Assembly: GCF_902490045.1 (NCBI RefSeq)
Contig: NZ_CABUCJ010000001.1
Coordinates: forward strand, 1-59,732
Length of the DNA stretch: 59,732 bases
Source: an uncultured Anaerotruncus sp.
Lineage (GTDB): Bacteria > Bacillota > Clostridia > Oscillospirales > Ruminococcaceae
Direction: 5' to 3'
The stretch's first letter is position 1. The number at the start of each line of letters is the position of its first letter. Below are positions 842 through 19,972 of the stretch, in pieces. Below the pieces are notes generated by a model. That model saw only the letters and a program-made list of their open reading frames with translations, was not told the DNA's origin and did not search any database. The position numbers and the translations under genes were made by a program.

Positions 842-855
842 ACGGGGGTGGAGCA

Positions 856-1650
856 GTGAAGATCATCGTATTGGTAAAACAGGTTCCCAACACCACGCAG
901 GTCAAGATCGACCCCAAGACGAACAACCTGGTGCGCGAGGGCGTGCCGAGCGTCATCAATGCCTATGACCTGTACGCGGTCGAAGAGGCGCTCTCCCTGC
1001 GGGAGCGGTTCGGCGGCACTGTGACGGTATTGAGCATGGGTCCCCGACAGGCTGCGGAAGCGCTCAAATACACGATGGCGATGGGCGCCGACCGGGCTGT
1101 GCTGCTGAGCGACCGCGCCTTCGCGGGCTCCGACACGCTGGCCACCTCCTACACCCTTGCGGCCGGGATCCGGCGGCTGGGCGTGCCCGATCTGATTCTC
1201 TGCGGAAAGCAGGCGGCGGATGGAGACACGGCACAGGTGCCCGCGGAGCTTGCCGAGCATCTCGGGATCGGCTGCCTGACCTATGTGGCCCGGGTCCAGA
1301 ATATTTCGGACGGGCGAGCACTCGTGGAACGAACGATGGATTTTGCTGGAATCCGGGCCGAGGTCCGGCTGCCCGCTGTGCTGACGGTCAACAAGGGGAT
1401 CAACGAGCCGAGGCTGCCCGCCCTCAGGGACATGGTGCGGGCGATGTATATGGAATGTGAGCTGATGACGGCGGCGGATGTGGATGTGGAAGAGGGAAGT
1501 ATCTCGCTCGCAGGTTCTCCAACACAGGTGGTGAAGATATTCTCCCCTGAACGGAAAAAGGGCGGCCGGATGCTATCCGGAGGGACGGACGAACAGGTGG
1601 AGGAGCTGCTGCGGCTGCTGGCGGAAGCGAAGCTCGTGTCTGCACAGTGA
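856..1650 (+). CDS. etfB: Electron transfer flavoprotein beta subunit
   Basis: KIIVLVKQVP N-terminus, AGSDTLATS, GKQAADGDTAQV; GTG start at 856. Confidence 0.95.
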   Translation: MKIIVLVKQVPNTTQVKIDPKTNNLVREGVPSVINAYDLYAVEEALSLRERFGGTVTVLSMGPRQAAEALKYTMAMGADRAVLLSDRAFAGSDTLATSYTLAAGIRRLGVPDLILCGKQAADGDTAQVPAELAEHLGIGCLTYVARVQNISDGRALVERTMDFAGIRAEVRLPAVLTVNKGINEPRLPALRDMVRAMYMECELMTAADVDVEEGSISLAGSPTQVVKIFSPERKKGGRMLSGGTDEQVEELLRLLAEAKLVSAQ

Positions 1651-1662
1651 GGAGGGAACGAT

Positions 1663-2871
1663 ATGGCTGAGTTGATCATTGACGCGGGCCGGTGCGTCGG
1701 CTGCGGCGCGTGCGCGGGCGCCTGCCCGTTCGGAGCTCTGCGCATGGAGGGGGAACTTCCTCGTGTGGACTGCGACAAATGCACCCTCTGCGGGGCGTGT
1801 GCTGGCGAATGCCCGGCGGACGCTATCCGCGTGGAGGCGGCGCGCTCCGCGCAGGCGGATCTGGGCGATTACCACGGGATCTGGGTCTATACGGAGCAGT
1901 GGCAGGGAACGATCGATGGCACGGCGTTCGAGCTGCTGACCCGGGCGCGCGAACTCGCGCGGGAGATGGGGGAACCGCTGTCGGCGGTGGCGGTCGGTTC
2001 CGGGATGCGCACTGCCGCGCAGGAGCTGATCGCCTACGGCGCGGACCGCGTCTACCTGCTAGACGCGCCCGCCCTCGCGATGCCCGACGAGGAAATTTAT
2101 GCGCGGCTGCTGGCGGATGAGATCTTCCGCCGCCGCCCCGCGGTCGTGCTCTACGGTGCGAGCACCTTTGGGCGTTCGTTGGCTCCGCGCGTGGCGGCAA
2201 AACTGCACACGGGGCTTACGGCGGACTGCACGAAGCTCGAGATCGACCCGGAGACGAAGCTGCTGCGTCAGACGCGGCCGGCCTTTGGCGGAAACGTCAT
2301 GGCGACGATCCTCTGTCCCAACCACCGTCCCCAGATGGCAACGGTACGCCCGAAGGTTTTCAGAAAAGAGCTGCCAGAAGCCCCACACAGCGGGGAGATC
2401 GTGGAAGCGCCGGTCGACACATCTAAATATGACTTTAAAAGCCAGATTGTAAAGGCCTTTGACTTTCCAAAGGGGAAACTGCACCTCGAGGACGCTGAAA
2501 TTATTGTTTCGGGCGGGGCGGGTTTTAAGAGCAGGGAGGAATACGCACTGGTAGAGGAGCTGGCGGAGGCGCTTGGCGGCTGCGCGGGCGCGAGCCGCTG
2601 TGCGGTCGACGCTGGTTACGCGCCGCACGCGCAGCAGGTGGGGCAGACGGGGAAGGTCGTTACGCCCAAGCTCTATATCGCGGCGGGGATTTCCGGGGCG
2701 ATCCAGCACATGGTCGGCATGGAAAACGCCGATCTGATCGTGGCGATCAACAAGGACCCGGATGCCGCGATTTTTCAGATCGCCGACATAGGAATCGTGG
2801 GGGACGTCATGGAGATCCTTCCGCGGCTGACAAAGGCCGTCCTGCGGGCAAAACAGCGGGAAGCGGTCTGA
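1663..2871 (+). CDS. etfA: Electron transfer flavoprotein alpha subunit with N-terminal 2x[4Fe-4S] ferredoxin domain
   Basis: Two CxxCxxCxxxCP motifs, then GLTADCT, RPAFGGN, QVGQTGK, GISGAIQH. Confidence 0.95.
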   Translation: MAELIIDAGRCVGCGACAGACPFGALRMEGELPRVDCDKCTLCGACAGECPADAIRVEAARSAQADLGDYHGIWVYTEQWQGTIDGTAFELLTRARELAREMGEPLSAVAVGSGMRTAAQELIAYGADRVYLLDAPALAMPDEEIYARLLADEIFRRRPAVVLYGASTFGRSLAPRVAAKLHTGLTADCTKLEIDPETKLLRQTRPAFGGNVMATILCPNHRPQMATVRPKVFRKELPEAPHSGEIVEAPVDTSKYDFKSQIVKAFDFPKGKLHLEDAEIIVSGGAGFKSREEYALVEELAEALGGCAGASRCAVDAGYAPHAQQVGQTGKVVTPKLYIAAGISGAIQHMVGMENADLIVAINKDPDAAIFQIADIGIVGDVMEILPRLTKAVLRAKQREAV

Positions 2872-2885
2872 CGGGCCGTACGGAG

Positions 2886-5183
2886 GTGACAGGATTGAAA
2901 CCGCTCAATGTCATTGGGAAAGGCGTCCGTCGGGTAGACGGCGCAGAAAAGGTAACCGGAAAGGCCCTCTTCAGCGACGACCTGTTCCTACCGGGTATGC
3001 TTTGCGGAAAGGCGCTGCACAGCGCCTATTCCCACGCGGAGATCGTCCGGCTGGACACGGAAAAGGCTCGGGCGCTTCCCGGCGTGCGCGCCGTGCTGAC
3101 CGCGCGGGATGTCAAAAACAACAAATGCTATCACCGGACGGGGGATACGTGGGTCCTGGCTGACGGCGAGGTGCGCTATATCGGAGACATCGTGGCAATT
3201 GTAGCTGCGGACGACGAGCGTACCGCCGAGCGGGCGCTGGGGCTGATCGAGGTGGAGTACCGCCCAAAGGAGCCGGTGGCGCAGCTTCAGGAGGCGGATA
3301 CGGGAGCGCGTCTTGTCCGCGACGACAAGCCGGACAACGTCGCGATGCCGCTTGTGGTCACCCGCGGCGATGTGGAGGCGGATTTCGCGCGGGCGGACGT
3401 CGTGGTCAGCGGGAAATATGTGTTCCCGTCGCTGCATCAGGTGCATCTTGAGCCGAACAGCGCGACGGCGGTCTACGAGCTGGGGAAGCTGACCGTCTAC
3501 TGCGCATCGCAGGTGTGGTTCCATACGAGACACGAGCTCGCCAAAATTACCGGCGTGCCGGAAAAGGATGTCGTGGTGCGCACCATGCAGATCGGCGGAG
3601 CGTTCGGCGCGCGAAACGAGCAGATCACGCCGATTCTGGCGGCGCTGCTGGCGGTGGCCTGCCGCAGACCGGTGAAGCTCACGAACACCCGGCTGGAGGA
3701 ATTCCTCGCGACCCGTCCGTCCGTGGGGATGGAGATCGAAGTGTCGATCGCGGCGGACCGGGAGGGAAACCTTTTGAGTAAAAAATCCAGGCTGCTCACC
3801 GATTTCGGCGCGTTTTCCAGCGACAGCGACGCGGTCACCGCAATCGCGAGCATGCGTGCCGACACCAACTACCACTTCCGCAGCACCCACGTCGAGGCGC
3901 ACGGGCTCTATACCAACCGCACGCCGACCTCCTCCTACCGCGGCTTCGGCAATCCGCAGATGCACTTCGCGCAGGAGTCGCTGCTCGACGAGCTCGCGGA
4001 AAAGCTGGCAATGGACCCGACCGAACTACGCCTGAAAAATTTTATCCGTCCGGGTGAGACGAGCATCCACGGTTTCCAGATCAGTTCGTGCGGGCTCGAA
4101 GCGTGTATGGAAAAGGCAAAGGAGCTGATCGGCTGGGAGGAAAAGCGCCGGAATCCCACGCCCGGGAAGGGGATCGGAGTCGCGGCGCTGGTGCACGCGA
4201 ACAGCAGCCGCGCGGGTGCGCCGGAATTTTCCGGTAGCAGCGCGATGGTCCGGGTGGACAGCGTAGGCAGGGTCACCGCCTATGTGGGCGAATCGGAGAT
4301 CGGGCAGGGCATCTGCACGGTGGTCGCTCAGATTGTGGCGGAGGAGTTCGGCGTTGACCCGCAGGAGGTCTATGTGGTGATGGGCGACACCGACCTCGCC
4401 CCCTTCTCCACGGGGACCAACGGCAGCAAGCTGACGACGAATATTGGAAATTCGGTGTTGTTTGCCTGTCGCGACGCCAAGGAGCAGATCCTCACGGTTT
4501 TGCGCGAACGGCTCGGAATGGGACCGGTTGCGATCGAAGACGGCAAGGTCGTCGGCGAAAACGGTGGAGAACCGCTGATGACGCTTCCGGAGGCGATGGA
4601 AAAGGTGAGCTACCGGCTCAGCGGCCGGCCTGTTATCGGTTTCGGTTCCTTTGAGCCCCACACGGTGACGGGGGACCGCACGGGGTATGGGCACCTCGCC
4701 CCAACCTATCCGTTCGGCGTGCAGATGGCAGAGGTCACCGTCGCTGAAAACGGGAACTTCACGATCGACCGGATCGTGTCGGTTCACGATGTCGGGCGGG
4801 TCGTCAATACCCAGATGGCGCTCGGACAGATCTACGGTGGCGTGATGCAGGCGGTCGGCTTTACGACGCTCGAGGACCTCGCGCCCAATGAGCATGGGGT
4901 CTATGCCGCGAACACGCTGCTGGAATACAAGGCGCCGACCGTCTGGGAGATGCCGGAGATCCTAGGCACGTTTGTGGAGACGAACGATCCCTTCGGACCC
5001 TACGGTGCGAAGGGAATTGGGGAACCTCCGATCATCGCGGTGGCCCCTGCGGTCGCCAACGCGATCTATAACGCCTGCGGCGTCCGGTTCCGGGAAATTC
5101 CGATCACCCCGGTAAGAATCCGGCAAAAAAAGCTGGAACAACAGCGGGTGCGGGCCGGTGAAAAAAAGGAGGATGGGCTGTGA
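2886..5183 (+). CDS. Xanthine dehydrogenase-family molybdopterin-binding subunit (HcrA-like)
   Basis: KVTGKA, GGAFGAR, YRGFG, EIGQG, GAKGIGEPP motifs. Confidence 0.9.
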   Translation: MTGLKPLNVIGKGVRRVDGAEKVTGKALFSDDLFLPGMLCGKALHSAYSHAEIVRLDTEKARALPGVRAVLTARDVKNNKCYHRTGDTWVLADGEVRYIGDIVAIVAADDERTAERALGLIEVEYRPKEPVAQLQEADTGARLVRDDKPDNVAMPLVVTRGDVEADFARADVVVSGKYVFPSLHQVHLEPNSATAVYELGKLTVYCASQVWFHTRHELAKITGVPEKDVVVRTMQIGGAFGARNEQITPILAALLAVACRRPVKLTNTRLEEFLATRPSVGMEIEVSIAADREGNLLSKKSRLLTDFGAFSSDSDAVTAIASMRADTNYHFRSTHVEAHGLYTNRTPTSSYRGFGNPQMHFAQESLLDELAEKLAMDPTELRLKNFIRPGETSIHGFQISSCGLEACMEKAKELIGWEEKRRNPTPGKGIGVAALVHANSSRAGAPEFSGSSAMVRVDSVGRVTAYVGESEIGQGICTVVAQIVAEEFGVDPQEVYVVMGDTDLAPFSTGTNGSKLTTNIGNSVLFACRDAKEQILTVLRERLGMGPVAIEDGKVVGENGGEPLMTLPEAMEKVSYRLSGRPVIGFGSFEPHTVTGDRTGYGHLAPTYPFGVQMAEVTVAENGNFTIDRIVSVHDVGRVVNTQMALGQIYGGVMQAVGFTTLEDLAPNEHGVYAANTLLEYKAPTVWEMPEILGTFVETNDPFGPYGAKGIGEPPIIAVAPAVANAIYNACGVRFREIPITPVRIRQKKLEQQRVRAGEKKEDGL

Positions 5184-5656
5184 GCAGCTTTCGTTTGCAC
5201 ATCTGGGTCAATGGGGAGCGGTATGAGGACGATATCCCCTCCGACCTGCTGCTGATTGACTATCTGCGCGGTTTCCGGCATCTGACGGGGACCAAACGCG
5301 CGTGCGGCGCGGGGGAGTGCGGCGCGTGCACCGTCCTGTTGGACGGCAGGGCGGTTTACTCCTGCATCATGCTCGCGCTGCAGGCAGACGGCAGGTCGGT
5401 GGAGACGATTGAAGGGCTCCGGGAGGGGGACGCTCTGCATCCCATCCAGCAGGCGTTTTTGGACGCGGGGGCGGTGCAGTGCGGATATTGCACGCCCGGG
5501 ATGATCATGTCCGCAAAGGCGCTGCTCGACAGCGACCCCCACCCGGATGAATACTGCGTCCGGGAGGCGCTTTCGGGCAATCTCTGCAGGTGCACCGGGT
5601 ACGCACAGATCCTCGATGCGGTCCGTCTCGCCTCGGAGAGGCTGCCAAAGCCGTAG
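5180..5656 (+). CDS. Molybdoenzyme 2x[2Fe-2S] small subunit (HcrC/XdhC-like)
   Basis: GTKRACGAGECGACTV, QCGYCTPG, GNLCRCTGY. Confidence 0.95.
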   Translation: MSSFRLHIWVNGERYEDDIPSDLLLIDYLRGFRHLTGTKRACGAGECGACTVLLDGRAVYSCIMLALQADGRSVETIEGLREGDALHPIQQAFLDAGAVQCGYCTPGMIMSAKALLDSDPHPDEYCVREALSGNLCRCTGYAQILDAVRLASERLPKP

Positions 5657-5738
5657 ACGGACGGTTCCCGCCGGATTTTCTGCGCAGGGCGGGGAAACCA
5701 ATGACAGCCGGCGCGCAGCGGCGGAAAGGGGGCTTTCG

Positions 5739-6710
5739 ATGGAAGTTGTCAAGATGGATTCAGTTGCGGCCGTCAGCCGGTTCCTGATGGAGCATCCCGG
5801 GGCGGGCCTTGTCGCGGGGGGGACCGATCTGATCCCCCGGCTCAATCAGAAGATCGAATCGCGCGCGCTGCTCTGCTCGATCGACGGGATCTCGGAGCTC
5901 TCCAAGGTACAGGAGCTGCCGGATGGAGGTGTCCTGATCGGCGCGGGGGTACGGCTTTCGGAGATTCCCGGCCATCCGCTGCTTGCCGGTTACGCCGCGC
6001 TCACCCGCGCGGCGGGGGAGGCGGCCTCGCTCCAGATACGCAACCGGGCGACGCTCGGCGGGAATATCCTGCAGGAGAACCGGTGTATGTACTTCAACCA
6101 GTCGGTCCACTGGTCGCAGCTGAACCGCTGCTTCAAGCTGGGTGGGGACCAGTGCTTTCAGTACCGCAAAAGCCCGGAGTGCGTCGCGCTTTTCCAGTCG
6201 GATGCGGCCCCTGCGCTGATGGCGCTGGGCGCGTCCGCGGTGGTGCAGAACGGCGACGTGCGGCGGGAGTTTCTGCTCGGTGAGCTTTATCTGCGCGCGG
6301 GGAAGAAGAACCTGTGTCCGGGAGACGTCCTGACCGGCGTCAGGCTGCCGCCCCTTCGGGAGGGAAGCAGCAGCGCCTACGAACGAAAGACACTGCGCGG
6401 TTCCTTCGATTTCCCGCTGATCAGCTGTGCGGTGTCGCTGTGCGAACGGAACGGCAGGGTATCTTCCCTGAGGGCGGTCCTGGGTTCCGCCGGCGTGATG
6501 CCACAGGAAATCCCGGAGGCGGGAGAACTGCTCATCGGGCTTGCGGCAGAGGCACTGCCGCAGGCGGCGCCTCGGGTACTGCCAGCGCTCCGCCACGCGG
6601 TCGCGCCCTTCCGGGACACACGCGTCAACGGCGCCGTGCGGACGGAGATGGGCGGGGAGGTGTTCCTGCGCGCCGTCAAAGCAGCGGCGGAGGCGTGCGG
6701 CCAGAAATGA
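5739..6710 (+). CDS. Molybdoenzyme FAD-binding subunit with Cys-rich [4Fe-4S] insert (HcrB-like)
   Basis: AGGTDL and IRNRATLGGN, then RCMYFNQ..CFKLGGDQC..ECVA insert; ATG 5739 follows RBS GAAAGGGGG. Confidence 0.9.
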   Translation: MEVVKMDSVAAVSRFLMEHPGAGLVAGGTDLIPRLNQKIESRALLCSIDGISELSKVQELPDGGVLIGAGVRLSEIPGHPLLAGYAALTRAAGEAASLQIRNRATLGGNILQENRCMYFNQSVHWSQLNRCFKLGGDQCFQYRKSPECVALFQSDAAPALMALGASAVVQNGDVRREFLLGELYLRAGKKNLCPGDVLTGVRLPPLREGSSSAYERKTLRGSFDFPLISCAVSLCERNGRVSSLRAVLGSAGVMPQEIPEAGELLIGLAAEALPQAAPRVLPALRHAVAPFRDTRVNGAVRTEMGGEVFLRAVKAAAEACGQK

Positions 6711-6767
6711 CCGGAGGTGCTCCGGTACGGCGCGGGGGACAGGTCATGTTCAGAGGGGGAGAGTCGT

Positions 6768-7370
6768 ATGGGGCGTTACATTGTGGGTGTGACCGGTGCG
6801 AGCGGAACGGTCTATGCCGAACGGCTTATTGCGCGGCTGACGCAAAAGGGACACGAGGTGCGCCTTTGCGTCACCGACGCGGGCCGGATGGTTTCCCGTG
6901 AGGAACGGGACTGGGAGGCCGGGACACCGGAGGCGCTGGAACGCTGCCTGCGAGAGCGGTGCGGCGCGCCGGAGGAATTGCTGCGCGTCTATCCCATCCA
7001 TGCGGTTGGCGCGGACATCGCCAGCGGATCGTTTCATTCCGACGGGATGATCGTGCTGCCCTGTTCGATGGGGACCCTCTCCTCAATTGCGCACGGGGCG
7101 TCCCACAACCTGCTGGAACGTGCGGCGGACGTGATGCTTAAGGAGCGTCTCCCGCTGCTTCTAGTTCCGCGGGAGGCCCCTTATAACACCATCCATCTGG
7201 AAAACATGCTTACGCTTTCCCGGCTGGGTGTTATTTTGGTCCCCGCGAGCCCGGCCTTTTATCATCGTCCGCATTCCGTGGACGAGCTTGTGGATTTTTT
7301 CGTCACCCGCCTGCTTGACCAGCTTGGTATTCGGGAAGAGTGTCCGGCCCGATGGCGGGGAATGGAATAG
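6768..7370 (+). CDS. ubiX: Flavin prenyltransferase UbiX
   Basis: VGVTGASG, IASGSF, PCSMGTL, RAADVMLKER, PREAP, PASPAFYH. Confidence 0.95.
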   Translation: MGRYIVGVTGASGTVYAERLIARLTQKGHEVRLCVTDAGRMVSREERDWEAGTPEALERCLRERCGAPEELLRVYPIHAVGADIASGSFHSDGMIVLPCSMGTLSSIAHGASHNLLERAADVMLKERLPLLLVPREAPYNTIHLENMLTLSRLGVILVPASPAFYHRPHSVDELVDFFVTRLLDQLGIREECPARWRGME

Positions 7371-7447
7371 ACGAGAACATATCCTGTATCAAATACCGTC
7401 CGCCAGTCGATGAGATGACCGGGGTATCATCATAAGGAGGAAAAGCA

Positions 7448-8845
7448 ATGTCAATCAAGTACATTCCGGAGCCCTTCCGAATCAAAATGGTGGAGACGAT
7501 CAGGATGACCACCCGGGAGGAACGGGAGGAAAAGATCGCGGCGGCGCATTACAACATGTTCAATCTTCGGGGCGAGGATGTCTACATTGATCTGTTGACC
7601 GACTCGGGCACCAATGCGATGAGCGCGGAGCAGTGGGCGGGAGTGATGAATGGAGACGAGGCCTATGCCGGCGCACGCAGTTACTACCGGCTGGTGGAAA
7701 CGGCGCAGGAGTTGTTCGGCTACGAGTATATCCAGCCAGTCCACCAGGGGCGCGCGGCGGAAAAGGTACTCTTCCCGGCGTTCCTGCACGAGGGGCAGTT
7801 TGCAATTTCCAACATGTTTTTTGATACGACCCGCGCACATGTCGAGCTGGCGGGCGCGCGTGCCATTGACTGCGTCGTCGAGGAGGCAAAGGATCCCTCC
7901 CACCGCTGCAAGTTCAAGGGAAATATGGATGTGGCCAGACTGGAAAGGCTTATCAAGGAATACGGCCCGGAACGTATCGGGCTGGTCGTCATGACGATCA
8001 CCAACAATTCGGCGGGCGGTCAGCCTGTTTCCCTCCAGAATATGGAGGAGGTCTCCGCAGTCTGCAAAAAGTACCATATCCCGCTGGACATCGACGCGGC
8101 GCGCTACGCGGAGAACGCCTACTTCGTCAAACGTGATGAAGAGGCGTGTAAGGGAATGTCCATCAAAGAGATCGTACACAAAATGTTTTCCTTCGCGGAT
8201 CTGTTTACGATGTCCGCCAAAAAGGACGGCATCGTCAATATGGGCGGCCTGATCGGTGTCCGCGATCCTAAGGAGAATGCCGACCTTGTTATGAAGATAC
8301 GTGCCAACTGCATCAGCTACGAGGGGTTTATCACCTATGGCGGACTGGCTGGACGCGATTTGGAGGCGCTGGCGATCGGCATGCGTGAGGGAATCGATGA
8401 GGATTATCTGCGCTACCGCATTGGGCAGATGGAGTACCTCGCCGCCCGACTGGACGACGCTGGCATCGCCTATCAGGCACCGGTCGGCGGGCACGGCGTA
8501 TTTGTTGATGCGGCGGCCATGTTCCCGCAGATTCCCTATTATGAGTTCCCGGGGCAGGTTCTCAGCATTGAACTCTATAAAGAGGCGGGCATTCGTGCCT
8601 GCGATATCGGTTCCTACATGCTCGGAAACGACCCCGACACCGGAAAACAGCTGCATGCAGACTTTGAATTCACAAGGCTCGCGATTCCGCGCCGCGTCTA
8701 CACCCAGGCGCATTTTGACATCATGGCGGAAGCGCTTATTGCGATCAAGGCCCGTGCGCATGAGATTAAACGCGGCTATAGAATTACTTGGGAACCGCCC
8801 ATTCTGCGGCACTTCCAGGCCCACTTGACCCCGATTGACGGCTGA
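7448..8845 (+). CDS. tnaA: Tryptophanase (tryptophan indole-lyase)
   Basis: [19 protein letters not shown] Lys motif MSAKKD; TnaA-type residues FFDTT (Asp), DIGS (no TPL Arg381) and LRHF (His). Confidence 0.88.
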
Positions 8846-8848
8846 AAT

Positions 8849-8887
8849 ACGGAAAGGAGGCGGCGCGGAACGCCGCCTCCTTTCCGT
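8849..8887 (+). terminator. Intrinsic terminator after tnaA
   Basis: 17-bp perfect inverted repeat ACGGAAAGGAGGCGGCG / CGCCGCCTCCTTTCCGT. Confidence 0.8.
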
Positions 8888-8920
8888 CCGTTTCCGCATA
8901 CAGAATTGGTGCCATTCCTG

Positions 8921-9034
8921 TGCATGGGCTTTGGATGCAACGCGGCGGGCATCACGGGCTGCCGAATCATCGATTCGCCGCGGGAACGCCTGATCGCGAT
9001 CATCACGAACAATTTTGTTCCCTGCAACGGGCGA
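8921..9034 (+). pseudogene. feoB: Internal 38-codon fragment of a split feoB-like gene (gate region)
   Basis: [38 protein letters not shown]; continues in frame as FPTLIAII at 25150. Confidence 0.9.
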
Positions 9035-9059
9035 TTGCCCCCTCCCGGGAGATGGAAAC
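9034..9059 (+). repeat. Left attachment site (core ATT plus arm CCCCTCCCGGGAGATGGAAAC)
   Basis: Arm 9039-9059 matches the reverse complement of 25127-25147 at 18/21 positions. Confidence 0.85.
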
Positions 9060-9342
9060 AATCGCCGGTTTCAGGGCTGATATGGAGCTTTTTGACCTGG
9101 ATTTGGAGGTGGAAACGACAGTTTTGTTGCCCTGTGGTAAGAGACCCTGGGGTCACTTACCAGACATCCAAAAGGCTTTCAGTCAGACGCTACAGGATTA
9201 CCGCAGCAAAAGGCATCTTACTCAAAAACAGCTCGCTGTTCAGCTTGGCGTGGCGGAAACGACACTTCGCCTCTGGGAACAGGGAAAGACGATTCCACAT
9301 CCCTCCACCCGGTTGAGGGCGGAAAAGATGTTGAAAGAGTAA
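9052..9342 (+). CDS. XRE-family HTH protein (start 9052 or 9082)
   Basis: [27 protein letters not shown]ro/CI-type HTH. Confidence 0.7.
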
Positions 9343-9384
9343 AAGGCAGGCCGCGATTCAAAAACGAACCGCGGCCTGCCTTTT
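9341..9384. terminator. Bidirectional terminator between convergent genes
   Basis: AAAAGGCAGGCCGCG...CGCGGCCTGCCTTTT. Confidence 0.8.
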
Positions 9385-9574
9385 AGAGATTGGATGATAG
9401 AAGTTGTATGATACGTGTCAAAACCTCTGTTTTTTGCATGGGGGACAGCGCGGATTCATTCAACCTCCGCTCAATGAGTTGGAGATGGTACTGATTCGCC
9501 CGCTCCGCGATGGACTTTCCATCCGGGGAGGGAACAAAATGAATCCGTACATGCTGAATCTGGTTTCGCTTCAT
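9383..9574 (-). CDS. Small hypothetical protein (63 aa) downstream of the tyrosine recombinase
   Basis: ATG with GAGGGGG RBS; MKRNQIQHVRIHF...; co-oriented with the integrase. Confidence 0.6.
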   Translation of the reverse strand: MKRNQIQHVRIHFVPSPDGKSIAERANQYHLQLIERRLNESALSPMQKTEVLTRIIQLLSSNL

Positions 9575-9632
9575 TTTTGCCGCCCCCTCGTCACAGGGTA
9601 TGCGGGGAGCGATTTGTCCTATTCCGACGCAC

Positions 9633-10535
9633 TCAATCCCCTTCGCTTCCACCGTTAAATCGGGAGGCCAGATAGATACGCGTGACATCGTCCCTGGTGT
9701 GGCCAAGCAACTTGGACACCTTCTTGCGGGCCTCCAATTCCGTAAAGCCCTGCCGGATAAAACCGTCGTACCATTCCGCCGCGCAGGTATGCCGGAGTCC
9801 GTGAAAAGTCATGGGCCGGGTGGAACCGACTTCCTGCATTTCGGCTTTGTGATAGTTGATGAACGCTTCCAGTCGGTGAATTGCCAGATGAGTCTTGTCG
9901 TCCGGGGCGACAAACAGTTTTTGCCCGCGCGGAGTGACCTTCAGGATGTCTCTCAGCATGATTCGGATGCTGTCGTTGATCGGCACCTCCCGCACGAGCC
10001 CGCCCTTGCCTTTGACGGTGAGCATTCCTACTGTCAGTGCCTTTTCCGCGGCGGCAGTGTCAAGCCGGAAACACTCATGGATACGCAAGGCGGCGTAGCG
10101 CCCCAGGCAGAGGATGGCAATATAATCGTTGTGATCTAACTTGGATGCTCTTGCTAAAAAACGATTAAATTCCGGTGAGCCCCAGGTGCGGTCCACCCCG
10201 CCGAACCGCCGCCGCTTCAAGTCCAATACGGCGTTATTGGGCAGGGTATATTTCGCGCCCGCGATCTGGTCGTGAAAGAACCGGATGGCCGACAGTTCGG
10301 TCTTGATGTAGGCCGCCGATAATCCTTTTTCCGAAAGATGGTCCACATAGGAGAAAAGGTGCTTTGGCGCGATATTTGCCAGCTTTTCCAGCCGGTATTC
10401 CTCCGCGAGATAAGCGAGGAACCGCTTGAACGCCTCGGCATACCGGGCCTTGGTCTTGTAGCTCCCCTGCCGGTTATGGGAAGAGAGTTTATCAAATTGG
10501 GACAGCAGATTGAGATAGATGCCTTTATTCAACAT
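9633..10535 (-). CDS. Tyrosine recombinase/integrase with SAM-like N-terminal domain
   Basis: Catalytic residues intact: ALRIHE (R), KGKGG (K), HGLRH, LLGH, TRIY (Y); GGAGG RBS. Confidence 0.9.
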   Translation of the reverse strand: MLNKGIYLNLLSQFDKLSSHNRQGSYKTKARYAEAFKRFLAYLAEEYRLEKLANIAPKHLFSYVDHLSEKGLSAAYIKTELSAIRFFHDQIAGAKYTLPNNAVLDLKRRRFGGVDRTWGSPEFNRFLARASKLDHNDYIAILCLGRYAALRIHECFRLDTAAAEKALTVGMLTVKGKGGLVREVPINDSIRIMLRDILKVTPRGQKLFVAPDDKTHLAIHRLEAFINYHKAEMQEVGSTRPMTFHGLRHTCAAEWYDGFIRQGFTELEARKKVSKLLGHTRDDVTRIYLASRFNGGSEGD

Positions 10536-11120
10536 GATAATCCTCCAAATGTTCTGCCTTGGAGGCGCAGTTCGCCCACTGGAAAATGGCGGCGTTTCGA
10601 CCGTTTTTCTGTTTCAGGGAGAGAAAAGAACCCCGCCGGGGATGGTCAGCGAAAGAAGTAAAAACCGCATTCCAACCGGCTTTTGGGAGACTTCCGGCTC
10701 GATGCTTTCCTCCGAAGTCCTCCGGGATTCCAAACCGTCTCGTTTAGAAATAGATTCGTGTTCAGCAATGGATGCCGCGAAAGCCTTTTATAAAAGGCCG
10801 GAGCATACGAACTCCACGGCGAACGCGATGCCGCCATAGCGGTGCAGGCTTGCGCTCACAGGCGTTCTTCTGCCGCCGGATTGCGAAAGCAGAACACCCA
10901 CCGGCGACAGGTGTGTGGGTGTTCTGCTGCGGGAGCCTGCCAAAGCTCTCTGGACGAATTCCGTGCCTGGATCCTCCGCATCGTCCCGTGCGGGGAGGCC
11001 TGTCTGCTGTCCCGTTAGAATGCTTATCCTTTTCTCCCTCTACCCGGGCCTTTGGCCTCGGCCGGGGGACACGCGCGCAACGCGCGCGGGAGATTGTGCC
11101 AAAAGTTGCTGGCTAAACGC

Positions 11121-11161
11121 AAAAAGGCCCTGATCAATGAGTTACACACTGATCAGGGCCT
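11121..11161 (-). terminator. Intrinsic terminator inside the leader
   Basis: AGGCCCTGATCA/TGATCAGGGCCT stem followed by a U-tract on the minus strand. Confidence 0.65.
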
Positions 11162-11208
11162 GAGCTGTATTGTGGTCTGAAAACCGCAAATTCAATTGAA
11201 AACCTGTG

Positions 11209-11249
11209 AAAAAGGCACAGTACGCCCACTTGTATGGGGTACTGCGCCT
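11209..11249 (-). terminator. Promoter-proximal intrinsic terminator/attenuator
   Basis: Minus strand AGGCGCAGTAC...GTACTGTGCCT then TTTT. Confidence 0.65.
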
Positions 11250-11327
11250 AGCAACAATCCATTAACGGCGGCACCGAAGCCGCCAACTGAGGAATCCACC
11301 GAAGGATTCAAAAAACACTGTAAACAC

Positions 11328-11356
11328 AGTATATGGCATAATAATGGCATTGTCAA
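11328..11356 (-). promoter_or_regulatory. Sigma-A type promoter
   Basis: Minus strand TTGACA-N17-TATACT with an AT-rich upstream tract. Confidence 0.75.
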
Positions 11357-11567
11357 GTGATAAAATCAATATATATAAAAAAATATAATAATTTAAAAAA
11401 AATACACAATATATAGTATGCAGAAATGCAATACTTGCTTCGGCAACTAATAGCCACTGGTGGTTAACCCGCAGGCCGTCAGTATGTGACGGAAAACTCT
11501 TTCTTCATCTCACGGATTTAAGTTTTTGACGAGTCCAACGACTGCTCCGCTGAGTTGCCGTAAGCCG

Positions 11568-12260
11568 TCAGCTTTCCATAACCTCAAGCACACCTGAAAA
11601 ATCTTCCGTCTGCCCGGAAATCACTTCAAGCCCGGTTTCCACAATACCCAAAGGCACCAGTTCGTCTGAGTGCCTGAAATCGCCGTAGAAGATCGTAAAA
11701 TTCCCCCACGGGCGATAGATCACCATTTCTCCGGTAATCGGATCGTATCCGGGCTGCTCCTCGCCGATGGAGAGCGGCTCATCTGGGGTTTGCGCGGGCT
11801 TTTCAATCCCTGACAAGTCATAGAATGACAGGTCAGTCATGGGAAGGCGCTCCAGAAAGGCGTCGACCGCAGTGTTGTCATACATTGCAATGACGACCTC
11901 CTCTGTGCCGTTTACAGTCAGCTTCAACTTGACGCCGCTGAATGTGGGGGCGCTTCCGTCAGGGTATGTCCCCGTGCTGGTTACTTGAGTTGCTTGATCA
12001 GGAGCGGAAGTCTGGCTGGGGGCATCTTCATCCGGTACTTCAGAGGAGATGTCCAAAGGCACTTTTCCATCATCTTCTGCTGCTTCGGAAGAGATGTCCA
12101 AAAGCACATCCCCATCATCTTCTGCTGCTTCGGAAGATAGGACTGAGGAGGTATTGGCTCCATCATTCCCGACAGGCTTTGAATTGTTGCTGGAAGAACA
12201 CGCTGTGAAAACAATGGAGACGCAAACCAGCATTGTGATCAGCAATAAATATTTTTTCAT
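11568..12260 (-). CDS. Lipoprotein with C-terminal cyclophilin-like fold
   Basis: Lipobox FTAC; C-terminal FLERLP..EK..GEMVIYRPWGNFTIFYGDF..LVPLG. Confidence 0.75.
   Translation of the reverse strand: MKKYLLLITMLVCVSIVFTACSSSNNSKPVGNDGANTSSVLSSEAAEDDGDVLLDISSEAAEDDGKVPLDISSEVPDEDAPSQTSAPDQATQVTSTGTYPDGSAPTFSGVKLKLTVNGTEEVVIAMYDNTAVDAFLERLPMTDLSFYDLSGIEKPAQTPDEPLSIGEEQPGYDPITGEMVIYRPWGNFTIFYGDFRHSDELVPLGIVETGLEVISGQTEDFSGVLEVMES
12046..12135. repeat. 45-bp in-frame tandem repeat (SSEAAEDDGxVxLDI)
   Basis: GAGATGTCCAAA at 12046 and 12091; period 45. Confidence 0.85.
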
Positions 12261-12369
12261 TCTCAAAATCCTTTCGCTTCATTAAGTTAAATAGATAGCT
12301 GGGTCCGGTCTGCTCCGGTCTGCTTATGAAGATTTTCGCAAGCGACGACACGGCTTACAAAACTTGATT

Positions 12370-12728
12370 TCAAGAGACTAATTCCAACTCACCAAGCCAC
12401 TTTTCTACTTCCGGCTGTGCTGCCGCGACTTCTCTCATGGGTATATGCAGCCCATTTTTTATGACATTCGCATCGGGCAGCAATTCCTGAATGGATGCGA
12501 TCGTGTTGGAAAACCCGCTGCTGGCGCTTGTCGCAAAGGGGATGACCGTCTTGCCGGAAAAGTCATATGCCTCCAAAAAACTGTATACGGGCATCGGCAT
12601 ATCGTACCACCAGTTGGGAAATCCAAAGATTGTGCTATGGAAGAGTCCTCCATTCGAGTCTGACCGGAACAAGCTGCCGTCAGTAAAAGCGTCAGGCATG
12701 ACAAACAAGCGAAAATCGTTCTTTTCAT
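12370..12728 (-). pseudogene. Internally deleted flavodoxin lipoprotein
   Basis: Signal/lipobox MKRTIFACL..TAAC is out of frame with the flavodoxin C-half GFPNWWYDMPMP..DFSGKTVIPF; N-half missing. Confidence 0.7.
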
Positions 12729-12757
12729 ACGTTGATCCTTTCAGATGCGCAAAAGCA

Positions 12758-13612
12758 TTAAGATAAATGGAGTTCAGCAAGCCACGCTTGAACGGCGGGC
12801 CGCGCGGAGTCAACCTCTGGACGGTACACGCCGATGACGTTGTCGATCACGGTGCAGTCCTCCGGCAGCGCCGCGGTAATATCCTGCACACTGCTGGCAA
12901 GCCCTCCCGTGCCGTGGGTGCAAAACAGGACGATGGTTTTCCCAGAAAGATCGTTCTCTTCGATAAAGCTCAAAATCGCCATAGGACAGCTGTACCACCA
13001 GTTGGGATAGCCGATGAACACGGTGTCGTAGTCGTCGATGTTCTCCACGCGGTGCGTAAGTTTTGGCCGGGCGTTTGCCGCCTTTTCATCGGCGGCCCGG
13101 TCCAGACATTCGTCGTAATCGCTGGAGTATGGCTCGGTCACGACAATCGAAAATAGATCCCCGCCGATTTCCTGCTGAATCCAGCCCGCCAGTTTTGCGG
13201 CGTTGCCGGGGAGCAGAACACTTGCGGACGCAGTGGCGTCCACATCGATTGAAGCAGGGTCCTCCACTTGGGTATTTTCCGCCCAGGTAAAGTAGGCGAT
13301 CAGCGTCTTGCCGTCGGGCTGCTCCTGCTCAGTGGGCAAATCCGGGATGGAGCTTTCAGAAGGAGCTGGGGCAGCTTCTGCGGAAGGAGTGGAAGCTGCG
13401 CTTTCGGACTGCTGGCTGGCGGCGTCCGACGGCGCGGAAACGGCGCTTTGCGGGGATGAAGACACGACCGCTGCTTCCGATGATGATTGGGGCGCGGCGC
13501 TCTCCGACCCTGAGGATTGCGCTGGAATCGACGGTTTAGACGTCTGATTTCCGCACGCGGTAAGACAAATCAGCGTGCTCAGGCAAATCAGAATTGCGGC
13601 AGCTTTTTTCAT
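12758..13612 (-). CDS. Flavodoxin lipoprotein with Ser/Ala/Pro-rich linker
   Basis: Lipobox LTAC; LIAYFTW, GYPNWW, FCTHGTGG. Confidence 0.85.
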   Translation of the reverse strand: MKKAAAILICLSTLICLTACGNQTSKPSIPAQSSGSESAAPQSSSEAAVVSSSPQSAVSAPSDAASQQSESAASTPSAEAAPAPSESSIPDLPTEQEQPDGKTLIAYFTWAENTQVEDPASIDVDATASASVLLPGNAAKLAGWIQQEIGGDLFSIVVTEPYSSDYDECLDRAADEKAANARPKLTHRVENIDDYDTVFIGYPNWWYSCPMAILSFIEENDLSGKTIVLFCTHGTGGLASSVQDITAALPEDCTVIDNVIGVYRPEVDSARPAVQAWLAELHLS

Positions 13613-14303
13613 GTGGCACCTCCTTGGGATGATTGGCCAGCTTTTTGCAGGCCTTGGAAAGTACGTGTCCGAGAAAGACGAAAAGCCCCATGATCGAGAG
13701 GTAATCGAGATAAAACAGGAGCTTCGGTTCCTCAAAGTCCATGAACACAAATTCGTTTTGCAGCAGCATATAAGACGGCAAATCCCGCTGGAAGAGCGCA
13801 TACAGGCCGTAGACCGCGATGACCAAACCGGCAAAAAAAAGAGAGGATGATGCCGCCTTCGACGGCTTCGCCTGGCCGAAGCGTTTTTTCGCCATGCCGA
13901 GGAACATACCCCAGTGCAGCCCCAGATGCAGGCTCAACAACGCATAGCCCCAATAGGCGCCAAGGATGTGGAGCCGCCGCGCCAGCATCATGCCTCCGTC
14001 GATGGGGAGGAACGCGAACACATGGCGGCTCATGACGATGCCGCTATACATTTGCGTCAGCATGGCGGCCAGCACAAGCAGATTGACGCTGACTGTCAGG
14101 ACACGCATCGGCGTGTAGCGGCCCTTAAAGAGGTTTCTATACCAACCGAAGTTCAGAAGGTTGTGCGCGAAAAACAGCGCGAACATACCCGCGCCTACCC
14201 ATTCGTGCGCCGCCTGCCCGAAGAATTGATAGCCCATCAGAACGAGCAGCGCCAGCGTCATGGCGGCGTCTAGGACCATCTTTACGATAGCTTTTGTTTT
14301 CAA
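13536..14303 (-). CDS. DUF4405-type cytochrome b-like membrane protein
   Basis: Several TM helices with His motifs HEWVG, FAHN, LHILG, LHLGLHW. Confidence 0.7.
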   Translation of the reverse strand: MKTKAIVKMVLDAAMTLALLVLMGYQFFGQAAHEWVGAGMFALFFAHNLLNFGWYRNLFKGRYTPMRVLTVSVNLLVLAAMLTQMYSGIVMSRHVFAFLPIDGGMMLARRLHILGAYWGYALLSLHLGLHWGMFLGMAKKRFGQAKPSKAASSSLFFAGLVIAVYGLYALFQRDLPSYMLLQNEFVFMDFEEPKLLFYLDYLSIMGLFVFLGHVLSKACKKLANHPKEVPHEKSCRNSDLPEHADLSYRVRKSDV

Positions 14304-14306
14304 CAG

Positions 14307-14846
14307 TCATCCACCGACCTTTCTGCCCAGCGCATAGGCTTTATCAGGAAATTCGGTTGCTTTTGTCATGGACACTGTGCCGCAACCGACGCCCAGGATC
14401 ATGCCCTGGTCCTGAAAATGCAGATAGCGGCAGAGCGTCTGATAATGGCTTTGCAGCTCCCGCATCGTCCAGTCATTGCTGTCCCATGCGGCGGCAATGA
14501 GCACGGTTTTCAGTTTTTTTGCGGTCAGCTCGCCGTTAAAGCTGTAAAAGCGGTCGATCACCATCTTGAGCTGTGCAGAGATTCCAAAATAGTAAAGCGG
14601 GGTGACGAACACGGCCAGATCACTGGCGAGAAGCTGTTCCCGCACCCGCGCCATATCGTCTTTTTGGCAGCAGGGGCCAGACATACCGCAGGCCTCACAG
14701 CCGAGGCAGGGATGTAGATCGGCGTGGCCCGCATCGAATACGATCACGGTGTTGCCGGCCTCCTTTGCGCCGCGGATAAACTGTTCCGCCAACAAATTGG
14801 AAGAGCCGTGCTTATGGGGGCTGCTTTCAATGACGAAGATGTTCAT
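14307..14846 (-). CDS. Iron-sulfur flavoprotein / NADPH-dependent FMN reductase family
   Basis: SSPHKHGSS, PCLGCEAC..C, TPLYYF, LKMVIDR. Confidence 0.85.
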   Translation of the reverse strand: MNIFVIESSPHKHGSSNLLAEQFIRGAKEAGNTVIVFDAGHADLHPCLGCEACGMSGPCCQKDDMARVREQLLASDLAVFVTPLYYFGISAQLKMVIDRFYSFNGELTAKKLKTVLIAAAWDSNDWTMRELQSHYQTLCRYLHFQDQGMILGVGCGTVSMTKATEFPDKAYALGRKVGG

Positions 14847-14859
14847 GCCGCTCCTCCCT

Positions 14860-15270
14860 CTAGTTCAGTTGGTCGTATGTTTCGTCGTCCACTGCCTCGC
14901 ACCATTCATTGGACGTGTTCTCGCCGAGGACCTCGATAGCGAGGTGGGCAAACCAGCTGTCCCTCGCCGCGCCGTGCCAGTGCTTGACCTCCGGTGGGAT
15001 GACCACCGAGTCGCCGGGGCGCAGCTCCCGCGCGGGCTTGCCCCACTCCTGATACCATCCCCGGCCCGACATACAGAGCAGGATCTGACCACCACCCTTT
15101 GTGGCGTGGTGGATATGCCAGTTGTTGCGGCAGGCCGGCTCAAAGGTGACGTTGAAAATCCCCATCCCTTCGGTGGTTACAGGATTCAAATAGCTCTGCC
15201 CGATGAAATACTGCGCGAAGGCGTCGTTGGGCCGTCCCAGCCCGAAGAGGCCAGCTTGTTCGTTGTTCAT
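14860..15270 (-). CDS. Cupin domain protein
   Basis: NVTFEPACRNNWHIH..GGQIL..KHWHGA. Confidence 0.9.
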   Translation of the reverse strand: MNNEQAGLFGLGRPNDAFAQYFIGQSYLNPVTTEGMGIFNVTFEPACRNNWHIHHATKGGGQILLCMSGRGWYQEWGKPARELRPGDSVVIPPEVKHWHGAARDSWFAHLAIEVLGENTSNEWCEAVDDETYDQLN

Positions 15271-15326
15271 GGTAAAGTCCCTCCAATTCGTATTTATGTT
15301 TCCTTGAACTGTCCGATAAACAGGAA

Positions 15327-15503
15327 TCATTCAACTTCTCTCTTGAGTACGACCATCGTATTTTTCCACTGAACAAATTCCCATCCTTCTAAACCGAGTT
15401 TAGTGAGTTCGCCCTCGATTTCGTGGGCTATTTCGGCATATTTTTTATCATTCAAGGCCGCGGGAATTCCCTTTGAAATTACCTTATACTCAAATTTTTT
15501 CAT
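15327..15503 (-). CDS. DUF4177-like small protein
   Basis: MKKFEYKV..LGLEGWEFV..LKRE. Confidence 0.7.
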   Translation of the reverse strand: MKKFEYKVISKGIPAALNDKKYAEIAHEIEGELTKLGLEGWEFVQWKNTMVVLKREVE

Positions 15504-15513
15504 TACATTATCC

Positions 15514-15996
15514 TCACAGCCCAAGGCTTTTGATCCATGCGTCCAGTGATTCTTTGGAAGGACTGCCGTTCAGCAGCTTCCCGGTGCGAACCTCCCCGGC
15601 GCAGCAGGCGCGCAGGATGCCGGCCGTCTTTCCCATCCCGCTGCCGCCGGAGGTAGCGAACGGGATCACCGTCTTGCCCGCGAAATCGTAGCTCTCCAAA
15701 AAGGCGTTGATGATTGTGGGGGCCACATACCACCAGATGGGGAAGCCCACAAAAACCGTGTCGTAATCCTCCATGTGTTCCACCGACCCGGAGATCTCCG
15801 GGCGGGAGGCCGGGTCGTTCATCTCGACACTGCTGCGGCTCTTTTTATTCGTCCAGTCCAGGTCGGCAGCGGTGTAGGGGACCTGCGGTTTGATTTCATA
15901 GAGATCCGCGCCCGCCGCCTCCGCCAGCTTCTGCGCGGCTCGTTTTGTCACGCCGCTGCAGGAAAAGTACGCCACCAATATCTTTTTACCATTCAT
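15514..15996 (-). CDS. Flavodoxin (cytoplasmic)
   Basis: [24 protein letters not shown]. Confidence 0.9.
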
Positions 15997-16011
15997 CTCT
16001 AAAACCTCCGC

Positions 16012-16338
16012 TCATTCTTCGCCGTGCACTTCTTTTGCCATTTTGAACGCCGCCCACGCATTGGGCCATCCCGCATAAAAAGCCGCATGGGTCAGGATTT
16101 CCGCCATCTCCCCGGCGGTGACGCCCTGCTTTTTGGCATTGCTGATGTGGTATTGGAGGGAACTGTCCAGAATTCCCTTGCTCATCAGCGCGGTGACGGT
16201 GACAATGCAGCGATCCCGCAGGGAAAACTGCTCCTCCCTCGCCCAAATTTCTCCGAACAGCACGTCATCGTTAAGCTCCGCGAACTTGGGAGCGAATGTC
16301 CCAAGAGCGTCGTGTCCGGCGGTCTGTTTTTCAATCAT
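16012..16338 (-). CDS. Carboxymuconolactone decarboxylase family protein
   Basis: FAPKFAELNDDVLFGEIW, HAAFYAGWP. Confidence 0.88.
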   Translation of the reverse strand: MIEKQTAGHDALGTFAPKFAELNDDVLFGEIWAREEQFSLRDRCIVTVTALMSKGILDSSLQYHISNAKKQGVTAGEMAEILTHAAFYAGWPNAWAAFKMAKEVHGEE

Positions 16339-16414
16339 GAGTTCTTCCAACCTTTCTTTGATTCGGATAAGCGGCAGGCGGGGCGGCCATTTAGACCGCC
16401 CCGCCTGCCTGCGC

Positions 16415-17362: not shown

Positions 17363-17395
17363 TTGAAAGTCCCCTTTCTCCGAATTTCAAGAAAA

Positions 17396-18901: not shown

Positions 18902-18905
18902 CTGC

Positions 18906-19667: not shown

Positions 19668-19737
19668 GTTGATTGACTCCTTCCTAATTGTTTTGAACGA
19701 TCCGGGCAATCCCGGTTGTTAATCTGACGCCGGTTTT

Positions 19738-19947: not shown

Positions 19948-19972
19948 AAAATCTCCTCCTTTAAGACTGCGT

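Follow-up and report, generated by a model that had tools for sequence, protein, structure and literature searches.

Two neighbouring islands, each with its own large serine recombinase, probably split one feoB gene of an uncultured Anaerotruncus into three pieces

Here we describe a feoB gene, one of several iron-transporter paralogs in the genome of an uncultured Anaerotruncus sp., that is broken into three pieces by two insertions lying 114 bp apart. The stretch analysed, called the window throughout, is 59,732 nucleotides long and is the complete contig C1 of the assembly (G000; 215 contigs, estimated contamination 4.36%). We consider it likely that the insertions are two independent site-specific integrative islands, each moved by its own large serine recombinase (LSR), that landed in the same feoB and left an isolated run of 38 codons between them. 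The island nearer the 5' end of the gene is called element 2 and its target site A; the other is element 1, at site B. A first-pass annotation, made from the letters of the window, had proposed a three-piece feoB that is rebuilt by serial programmed excision. The three pieces are there and join in frame, but the word "programmed" finds no support, and both the cargo of the elements and the phylogeny of their recombinases indicate horizontal islands instead.

The pieces of the gene are as follows, with bare coordinates for the window and prefixed ones for other contigs of the assembly.

C36:11977-13278: 5' piece, ending ..GKQALTMCM.
8921 to 9034, plus strand: middle piece, 38 codons, equal to aa 433-470 of a 714-aa protein, in the first Gate domain.
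25150 to 25884, plus strand: 3' piece, 244 codons and a stop (FPTLIA...), with FeoB_C and Gate domains.

The middle piece opens with a Cys codon (8921-8923), closes with an Arg codon (9032-9034) and has no internal stop, and the frame around it reads ..TELVPFL before its 38 residues and LPPPGRW.. after them. The isolated 38 residues match the Pfam Gate domain weakly (E 4e-4, below the cut-off), so the case for FeoB rests on comparison with orthologs. In G016, a genome of the same genus, the ortholog is uninterrupted, encodes 714 aa and reads ..QALTMCMGFGCN...PCNGRFPTLIA.., and its aa 432-472 align to window 8918-9040 at 95% identity (E 4e-20, tblastn). The first two residues of the middle piece, Cys-Met, are present on the 5' piece too; after them, 36 of 36 residues are identical to the G016 protein, with 7 synonymous differences in the underlying DNA. 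A match so far beyond chance confirms, at the level of sequence comparison, that 8921-9034 is an internal feoB piece, much as the first-pass annotation had read its stop-free, FeoB-like frame.

The remainder of the gene is also accounted for. A profile search finds 15 matches to FeoB_N, the GTPase domain, in the genome and 0 on C1, in line with the earlier remark that the window holds no FeoB GTPase. The FeoB_N match on C36 sits in an open frame of just 490 aa (C36:11977-13437) that is FeoB-like as far as ..CHACGKQALTMCM and divergent beyond, where the sequence runs into an LSR gene. Two predictions had been made for the region upstream of the window, namely a 5' piece ending in ..ALTM and a second recombinase after it; the piece on C36 ends in ..ALTMCM and joins in frame, and the recombinase is encoded at C36:13535-15175. 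The 3' piece is identical to the G016 ortholog at 234/244 residues. Placed end to end, the 434, 36 and 244 codons of the three pieces equal the 714-aa ortholog, and precise excision of the inserts would restore one open reading frame (ORF). Every piece scores singly under the equivalog cut-off of TIGR00437. Across the pieces, though, the FeoB domain order is complete: the N-terminal GTPase, two Gate domains and FeoB_C, with FeoB_N on C36, Gate matches on C36, in window 8882-9040 and in window 25414-25785, and FeoB_C together with the last of these on the 3' piece.

The arrangement can be followed along the chromosome by comparing 20 kb round the G016 feoB locus with G000 by blastn, which returns four matches in order.

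G016 1 to 10790: C36:2540-13279, 91.8% identity.
G016 10782 to 10902: window 8919-9039, 93.4% identity.
G016 10898 to 16598: window 25150-30851, 93.5% identity.
G016 16637 to 20000: window 33173-36538, 97.1% identity.

At the two joints within the gene the matches overlap by 9 bp and 5 bp, which are the two recombination cores. Since G016 is collinear in order with core-sized overlaps, G000 has exactly two feoB insertions, 114 bp apart, relative to G016. The locus of Anaerotruncus massiliensis AT3 (L145) is likewise intact and is 96% identical to the 5' piece. One might still take the 114 bp for a deletion relic, the remnant of a decayed feoB without partner pieces, given that nothing FeoB-like stands upstream of 8919 inside the window. 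The 5' piece exists, however, and abuts exactly, all pieces are free of stops with a ratio of nonsynonymous to synonymous divergence (dN/dS) of about 0.09, and the C36 piece, the intact 714-aa gene of G016 and the blastn collinearity together rule the relic out, leaving it next to no chance. Downstream of the gene, window 30852-33172 spans 2.3 kb in G000 against about 38 bp in the otherwise collinear G016; it holds a minus-strand ORF at 31239-31922 and may be another small insertion or deletion difference.

At the borders of the two insertions the proposed attachment (att) sites are read as follows.

8886 to 8918, plus strand: element-side arm of attR at site A, including CCGCATAC at 8894-8901, with an inverted copy at C36:13290-13297.
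8919 to 8927, plus strand: 9-bp core TGTGCATGG of site A, the same as C36:13271-13279, with the likely crossover TG at 8919-8920.
9035 to 9036, plus strand: TT crossover dinucleotide of site B (attL of element 1), partner 25150-25151, core ATT.

Site A lies within ..T-M-C-M-G-F-G-C.. of the protein and site B within ..P-C-N-G-R/F-P.., where the slash marks the break. At site B the arms of element 1 are complementary at 18/24 positions about the TT, and an identical TT with GGAAAC/GTTTCC arm motifs is found in five other genomes (G001, G004, G011, G020 and G017). The middle piece does end at the att core of the 16-kb element, as had been stated, at TT 9035-9036 and 25150-25151. For site A the symmetry of the arms makes the Met-codon TG (8919-8920) the most likely crossover: G020 (15/24), G017 (13/24) and G026 (14/24), 3/5 elements of the first of two site-A recombinase lineages, have their top dyad centre on it, and it scores 18/24 in G029. 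This dinucleotide had already been put forward as a second crossover, and it is the best supported candidate. Both copies of CCGCATAC stand 17 nt from the TG (8919-8920 and C36:13271-13272). The arms of element 2 in G000 are complementary about this TG at 13/24 positions. In the elements of the second site-A lineage (G012 and G025) the dyad centre falls two bases further, on the TG of the Cys codon, at 18/24 in each.

The same two positions are broken again and again in other genomes. A survey of 30 orthologous feoB loci among relatives, G000 included, gave 20 uninterrupted genes, 7 broken at aa 432-436 (G000, G012, G026, G020, G025, G017 and G029) and 3 broken at aa 472 (G001, G004 and G011). 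The 3' piece is stop-free in 10/10 of the interrupted genomes, nine of them found by search and that of G000 lying in the window, and inserts with both ends on one contig measure about 3.3, 5.6, 6.0, 13.3, 18.2, 19.8 and 34.3 kb. A wider census of species-representative genomes, in which 80 loci were kept, counted 63 intact genes, 8 broken at site A, 7 at site B and 0 elsewhere, with 2 further loci that run off the contig past both sites. A check had been proposed on whether both breakpoints recur with different cargo, and with 10/30 relatives and 15/80 census loci broken they do. The broken census loci include those of Youxingia wuxianensis NSJ-64 (site B, L147) and Massiliimalia timonensis Marseille-P3753 (site A, L213). 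In an all-against-all ORF comparison of 13 element parts the LSR is the sole common gene, the other matches being antisense ORFs inside the LSR gene and aldo/keto-reductase paralogs. The cargo elsewhere ranges from a prophage with TerL and portal genes (G025) to defence-like genes (G026), a sugar transferase (G029) and a LuxR-type regulator (G001).

Three of these loci deserve a separate description. The site-A prophage of G025 (L062, L063) is 34.3 kb long, and its LSR belongs to the other, shorter lineage (476 aa), as does that of the 6-kb element of G012. The site-A insert of G084 (L111) is about 2.6 kb long, with little room for anything beyond the LSR, and both feoB pieces lie inside one 4.2-kb locus. 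The 5' piece beside the site-A LSR of G340 (L110) can be aligned in just two parts, aa 1-202 and 301-433, separated by about 58 nt, which is either a natural deletion of a helical linker or decay beginning.

The recombinases themselves sort by landing site. Each island's LSR was used as a query against 400 genomes of the order. For the LSR of element 1, 25 other genomes matched at E 1e-80 or better. Its relatives in G183, G060 and G228 (43-57% identical) adjoin a 3' piece of feoB beginning at aa 468-471; the LSR of G343 (49%) has no feoB in its flank, and neither do any of those at or below about 42%. For the LSR of element 2, 111 other genomes matched and 29 loci were examined: 7 of the 8 best adjoin a feoB broken at aa 427-435 (G262, G192, G340, G084, G419, G134 and G289; 42-53% identical), and those lacking a flanking feoB among the 29 are G402 and all below about 41%. 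A quick maximum-likelihood tree of 70 LSRs, with SH-aLRT support only, holds a site-B clade (support 100) in which the LSR of G343 joins 9 that are feoB-flanked, a first site-A lineage (support 96) in which 12/12 are feoB-flanked, and a second site-A lineage made up of the G012 and G025 pair (support 100). Hosts are mixed within the clades: G183 (family f22) and G060 (family f25) have near-identical LSRs, and G340 (f25) pairs with G419 (f14). Because the clades mix host families in this way, horizontal movement is indicated.

The three-piece state has also arisen more than once. In G020, of a different genus, contig C16 carries the 5' piece broken at site A; C50 carries a site-A LSR (54.5% identical to that of element 2), an isolated piece of 37-38 codons within a 70-aa open frame, and the end of a site-B element; and C26 carries a site-B LSR and the 3' piece. 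In G017, contig C30 (L066) has a site-A element of 3.3 kb together with the middle piece and stops precisely at site B, C54 (L051) opens precisely there with the 3' piece, and on C72 (L106) the final 85 nt of the middle piece are present again and lead into a site-B element that has its LSR (47% identical). These overlapping contigs suggest that the G017 data set holds both occupied and empty forms of site B. With the two sites taken as independent, about 1.4 doubly occupied loci would be expected among the 30 relatives (7/30 x 6/30), where 3 are counted; given such small numbers and the relatedness of the genomes, we make no claim from the excess.

The islands and the features at their edges in the window are these.

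1 to 8918, plus strand: right-hand part of element 2, described by Pfam and NCBIfam matches; a stretch missing from the collinear G016 locus.
7448 to 8845, plus strand: tryptophanase-family beta-eliminating lyase, called tnaA in the first-pass annotation; last cargo gene of element 2, stop at 8843-8845.
8851 to 8865 and 8871 to 8885, plus strand: perfect 15-bp hairpin, 3' of the lyase stop, ending 33 nt before the core at 8919.
9037 to 25149, plus strand: element 1, 16.1 kb, missing from the G016 locus.
23465 to 25090, plus strand: LSR of element 1, 541 aa, complete, with Resolvase, Recombinase and Zn_ribbon_recom domains, ending 59 nt before TT 25150-25151 (attR).

Element 2 is about 16.8 kb long and is divided between two contigs, with its left 7.9 kb at C36:13280-21179 and its right 8.9 kb at window 1-8918. 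A gene for a DAO-type oxidoreductase is split across the contig ends, its Pfam profile positions 1-122 falling on C36 and 121-352 on the window. The ends have no exact overlap, so a few bases are missing between C36 and the window. The LSR of element 2 (546 aa) starts about 255 bp past the core and is complete, with Resolvase, Recombinase, Zn_ribbon_recom and DUF4368 domains. Genes annotated tndX on Enterococcus plasmids match it at 37.5% identity across 96% of its length; the best solved relative of its catalytic domain is TnpX (2mhc, E 1.8e-32), and its residues 15-338 match the SPbeta SprA/YokA structures (9dxh, E 2.8e-22). After the LSR the C36 part encodes a MarR regulator, an AstE/AspA-like hydrolase, a sodium:solute symporter, a UbiD decarboxylase and the start of the DAO gene, and the window part encodes the 3' part of that gene, the beta and alpha subunits of an electron transfer flavoprotein (ETF), a three-subunit molybdenum hydroxylase, a UbiX-type prenyltransferase and the lyase.

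It had been proposed that the tnaA operon is cargo of another element in the same gene, and it does lie inside element 2 and is absent from the G016 locus. The lyase scores 713 bits against a cut-off of 285 for the tryptophanase subfamily NF009709 and matches Pfam Beta_elim_lyase, but falls under the equivalog cut-offs of both TnaA and tyrosine phenol-lyase. The molybdenum hydroxylase matches are nearest XdhA and 4-hydroxybenzoyl-CoA reductase, again under the cut-offs, and in 5 same-genus genomes a subunit of it has only paralogs of at most 35% identity. With no close counterpart of the hydroxylase in those genomes, the tnaA-like operon is best taken as accessory cargo. A ferredoxin domain accompanies ETF alpha/beta, and the cargo as a whole (C36:15222-21179 and window 1-8845) resembles one catabolic module. 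Going by its gene content, it could be an aromatic amino-acid pathway of the indole or phenol type. The FeoB frame had been placed 33 bp past a tnaA terminator: the perfect hairpin does end 33 nt before the core, but a simple terminator scan does not list 8851-8885 (the T-run is too weak), and "terminator" is therefore a reading and not a result.

Element 1 has a G+C content of 54.4%, against 63.2% for the genome. Its cargo is largely of a redox kind and includes a cyclophilin-like protein, four flavodoxin-domain proteins, a flavin mononucleotide (FMN) reductase, a cupin, two aldo/keto reductases and an FGE-sulfatase/flavodoxin fusion; its other genes encode an XRE-type helix-turn-helix (HTH) protein, a tyrosine-recombinase-like protein, a LysR regulator, a small MazE/AbrB-like ORF and the LSR. 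That LSR is nearest to clostridial phage integrases (36-42% identical) and to the TP901-1 catalytic domain. No phage genes (capsid, portal, terminase or tail) were found in the scanned ORFs of either G000 island, small ORFs being covered in part. At the left end, the tyrosine-recombinase-like gene (9633-10535, minus strand; 300 aa, with Phage_integrase and SAM-like N domains) adjoins the XRE-type HTH gene at 9100-9342, so that a second, unrelated recombinase is aboard. A 62-aa MazE/AbrB-like ORF of the SpoVT-AbrB fold (23250-23438) lies directly upstream of the LSR; it has no counterpart beside the LSRs of other site-B elements, and the HTH ORF at the far left end has none in the other elements.

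Metagenomes allow the arrangement to be examined outside the assembly. Eight runs in 2 studies, bovine gut metagenomes by their records, hold at least 85% of the sampled words of window 8500-9500, and six of the eight may be source runs. Logan contigs, which drop rare variants, were compared with window 7000-26500 for 4 runs, and runs X9 and X10 (shares 0.29 and 0.26), which yield short low-depth pieces, were kept out of any claim on habitat or strain. In run X1 a Logan contig of 23,049 bp matches window 7000-15133 throughout, with 0 differences and without branching, and by that span it bridges both junctions of the middle piece; by arithmetic, its remaining 14.9 kb would reach about 7.9 kb left of the window start, a length equal to the C36 part of element 2. 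Two segments of element 1, 14812-15462 and 22624-23274, have a summed contig depth several-fold higher (to 115 in X1) than the roughly 13 elsewhere in the element, many loose contig ends lie near 15104-15156, and these two segments appear to be common to other organisms or elements in the samples.

Run X4 is the more complicated one, and it bears on the thought that the doubly interrupted gene is an assembly artefact, two single-island strains having been stitched together across a common 114 bp. There, this strain's contigs stop inside the 114 bp (7000-8995 and 8971-10429), and another contig, at depth 30.7, joins 9033 to 25150 with one extra G and is attributed to a relative that is more abundant in this run and has nothing inserted at site B. 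This joint was considered as a possible excision product and set aside, since it resembles the relative's empty site (CGG, as in G016). Co-occurrence of such a relative, contigs breaking within the 114 bp and an assembly of 215 contigs with some estimated contamination speak for an artefact. Against these stand the single X1 contig that crosses both junctions unbranched and without a difference (the assembly of X1 is independent, though X1 is possibly the source sample) and the single contig of G020 that has in succession a site-A LSR, the piece of 38 codons and the end of a site-B element. An artefact is accordingly very improbable. A joint of this strain across either island was not seen in the Logan contigs of the 4 runs, and given that these drop rare variants, that says nothing about excision.

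How, then, could a gene come to be divided in this way? Each LSR would have recombined the circular, attP-bearing form of its island with its attB, in two integration events that were presumably independent. The attB sites would be the DNA of two conserved Cys motifs in the first Gate domain of FeoB, and conservation of these codons across Clostridia would make both motifs dependable landing sites, with the 114 bp between the sites stranded as an orphan piece of 38 codons. Loss of the gene may be tolerable because three intact feoB paralogs would cover iron uptake. These remain in the genome on C7, C30 and C135, the split gene being one of four. The best of them (C30), to which the site comparison is confined, gapped alignments of C7 and C135 having been left out, agrees with the site-A region at 33/54 positions and with the site-B region at 27/54, differs in the Cys codon and is unoccupied. 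Precise excision by the LSR with a putative directionality factor would restore the gene, and the low dN/dS of the pieces may reflect recent insertion.

Several observations weigh against this account of two independent islands. Neither an attP circle nor a rebuilt attB was observed for this strain, so present-day mobility is presumed, and the joint between C36 and the window is not present as sequence in the assembly. The arm dyad of element 2 is weak in G000, where the 13/24 about TG ranks third. Relaxase, coupling-protein and type IV secretion genes are absent from the scanned ORFs of both islands, small ORFs being covered in part. Pieces that are intact and constrained are equally expected of a gene that is regularly rebuilt, the short inserts of G084 (2.6 kb) and G017 (3.3 kb) resemble known intervening elements more than cargo islands, and Spo0A and SpoIVA are encoded in the genome, which would allow for an excision coupled to sporulation.

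These points lead to the idea that both islands are gene-intervening elements, excised serially in the mother cell or on a signal such as iron limitation to give a working FeoB. Calculation of dN/dS on the pieces had been proposed as a check, and relative to G016 it is 0.090 for piece 1 (417/434 aa identical), 0 for piece 2 and 0.111 for piece 3, with dS of about 0.2. With five intact outgroups to polarise them, the amino-acid changes divide into 8 on each of the G000 and G016 branches and 11 ambiguous ones, so there are no extra changes on the interrupted branch. By these measures the split feoB shows no decay, which fits either a recent insertion or a gene that is still used. Regulated rebuilding would also agree with the in-frame joining of three intact pieces to 714 aa, with a genome that has Spo0A and SpoIVA, with the short site-A inserts, that of G084 having little room beyond its LSR, and with the three-piece state found again in G020 and G017. 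There is precedent in the gerE gene, where a non-phage LSR element uses a 42-aa helper without a conserved motif (PMC5595907), and in cyanobacterial genes cut by up to four elements (PMC4874684).

The wider comparisons speak differently. The cargo is unrelated in all the elements compared (13 parts), and the LSR tree crosses host families, unlike what is expected of a domesticated element kept by vertical descent. The sister species G016 has neither island, one site-A element (G025) is a complete-looking prophage, and neither small ORF tested, the MazE-like one and the left-end HTH one of element 1, has a counterpart beside other LSRs. FeoB is not known as a sporulation-specific gene, and three intact feoB paralogs persist here. 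We therefore hold programmed or regulated rebuilding to be unlikely. Its more elaborate form, a conditionally rebuilt feoB in which candidate directionality factors drive serial excision, either in the sporulating mother cell or in response to an iron or redox signal, with the transporter kept off in growth, we judge slightly less probable again. Were it true, the germ line would keep the elements' cargo safe, and Firmicutes would have their first described multi-element programmed rearrangement, in what would also be the first such case outside sporulation genes; if excision were regulated at all, it would amount to a new genetic switch on iron uptake.

Two independent islands, the explanation that we prefer, has consequences of its own. 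When two site-specific islands land next to each other, an orphan gene fragment of 114 bp can be left between them, and annotation pipelines would call such a split feoB three pseudogene fragments. The Cys-motif codons of feoB emerge as a much-used landing pad in Clostridia (15/80 orthologs, at least 3 LSR lineages) for cargo that is metabolic, redox, defence or prophage. This matters for how gut anaerobes gain accessory pathways, such as an indole or phenol-type amino-acid catabolic set, and for the use of LSRs with defined attB sites as genome-engineering tools. Within the collection searched, and at the level of titles and abstracts, we found no paper linking feoB to a serine recombinase or integrase, although supplementary tables of LSR surveys, and those of PMC4874684, may list feoB; its role as a widely used LSR target is apparently unreported so far.

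The islands belong to a known class, that of LSR integrative and gene-intervening elements, and the likenesses and differences are instructive. The staphylococcal cassette chromosome elements (SCC/SCCmec) are moved by the Ccr LSRs into the 3' end of rlmH without inactivating that gene, and they have interchangeable cargo and may sit as cassettes side by side. The feoB islands would be analogous in having exchangeable cargo behind a conserved LSR at a fixed site, but here there are two sites, both inside the coding sequence, and the gene is split. The recombinase relatives of element 2's LSR, TndX of Tn5397 and TnpX of Tn4451, come from elements with resistance genes, genes for transfer or mobilisation, and other targets, whereas here the target is a fixed feoB codon and the cargo metabolic. 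The integrases 36-42% identical to the LSR of element 1 are those of Terrisporobacter phage TPELB_ph1, Clostridium phage HM T and C. perfringens phage CP51; in contrast to these phages element 1 has no phage genes, although the site-A element of G025 is a prophage.

Closer parallels come from genes that are split by an LSR element and restored by its precise excision, as in skin of sigK (SpoIVCA; skinCd, PMC5025042) and SPbeta of spsM (SprA/SprB; PMC4191935, PMC5499854). Skin and SPbeta are prophages or prophage remnants in mother-cell genes under developmental control, whereas the islands described here carry metabolic and redox cargo, with no phage genes in the scanned ORFs. Another such case is gin in the gerE gene of Bacillus cereus ATCC 10987, with the LSR GirC and the recombination directionality factor (RDF) GirX, for which excision in mid-sporulation was established by experiment (PMC5595907). 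Like the feoB islands, gin is a non-phage element of tens of kb in a coding sequence, moved by an LSR, with strain-variable genes and without conjugation genes of its own, and its core is 9 bp, as is that of site A; an RDF, by the same account, can be about 42 aa long and lack a conserved motif. It differs in interrupting a sporulation gene and in having a known RDF, whereas here two unrelated elements share one feoB paralog and any excision is hypothetical.

For several elements in one gene the comparison is with the heterocyst interruption elements of nifD, fdxN, hupL and other genes. Those belong to cyanobacteria, mostly to heterocyst-specific genes, and are excised in terminal differentiation, whereas the feoB case concerns a gut anaerobe of the Clostridia, an iron-transporter paralog and an excision that is hypothetical. 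Such interruption can go far: 10/87 interrupted genes have more than one element and Rivularia nifD has four (PMC4874684), and nifBHDK lies in 13 parts in Calothrix NIES-4101 (PMC11249958). What the two systems have in common is that several recombinase-bearing elements occupy a single gene and that the recombinases form position-specific clades (PMC4874684), just as the LSRs of the feoB islands group by site A and site B.

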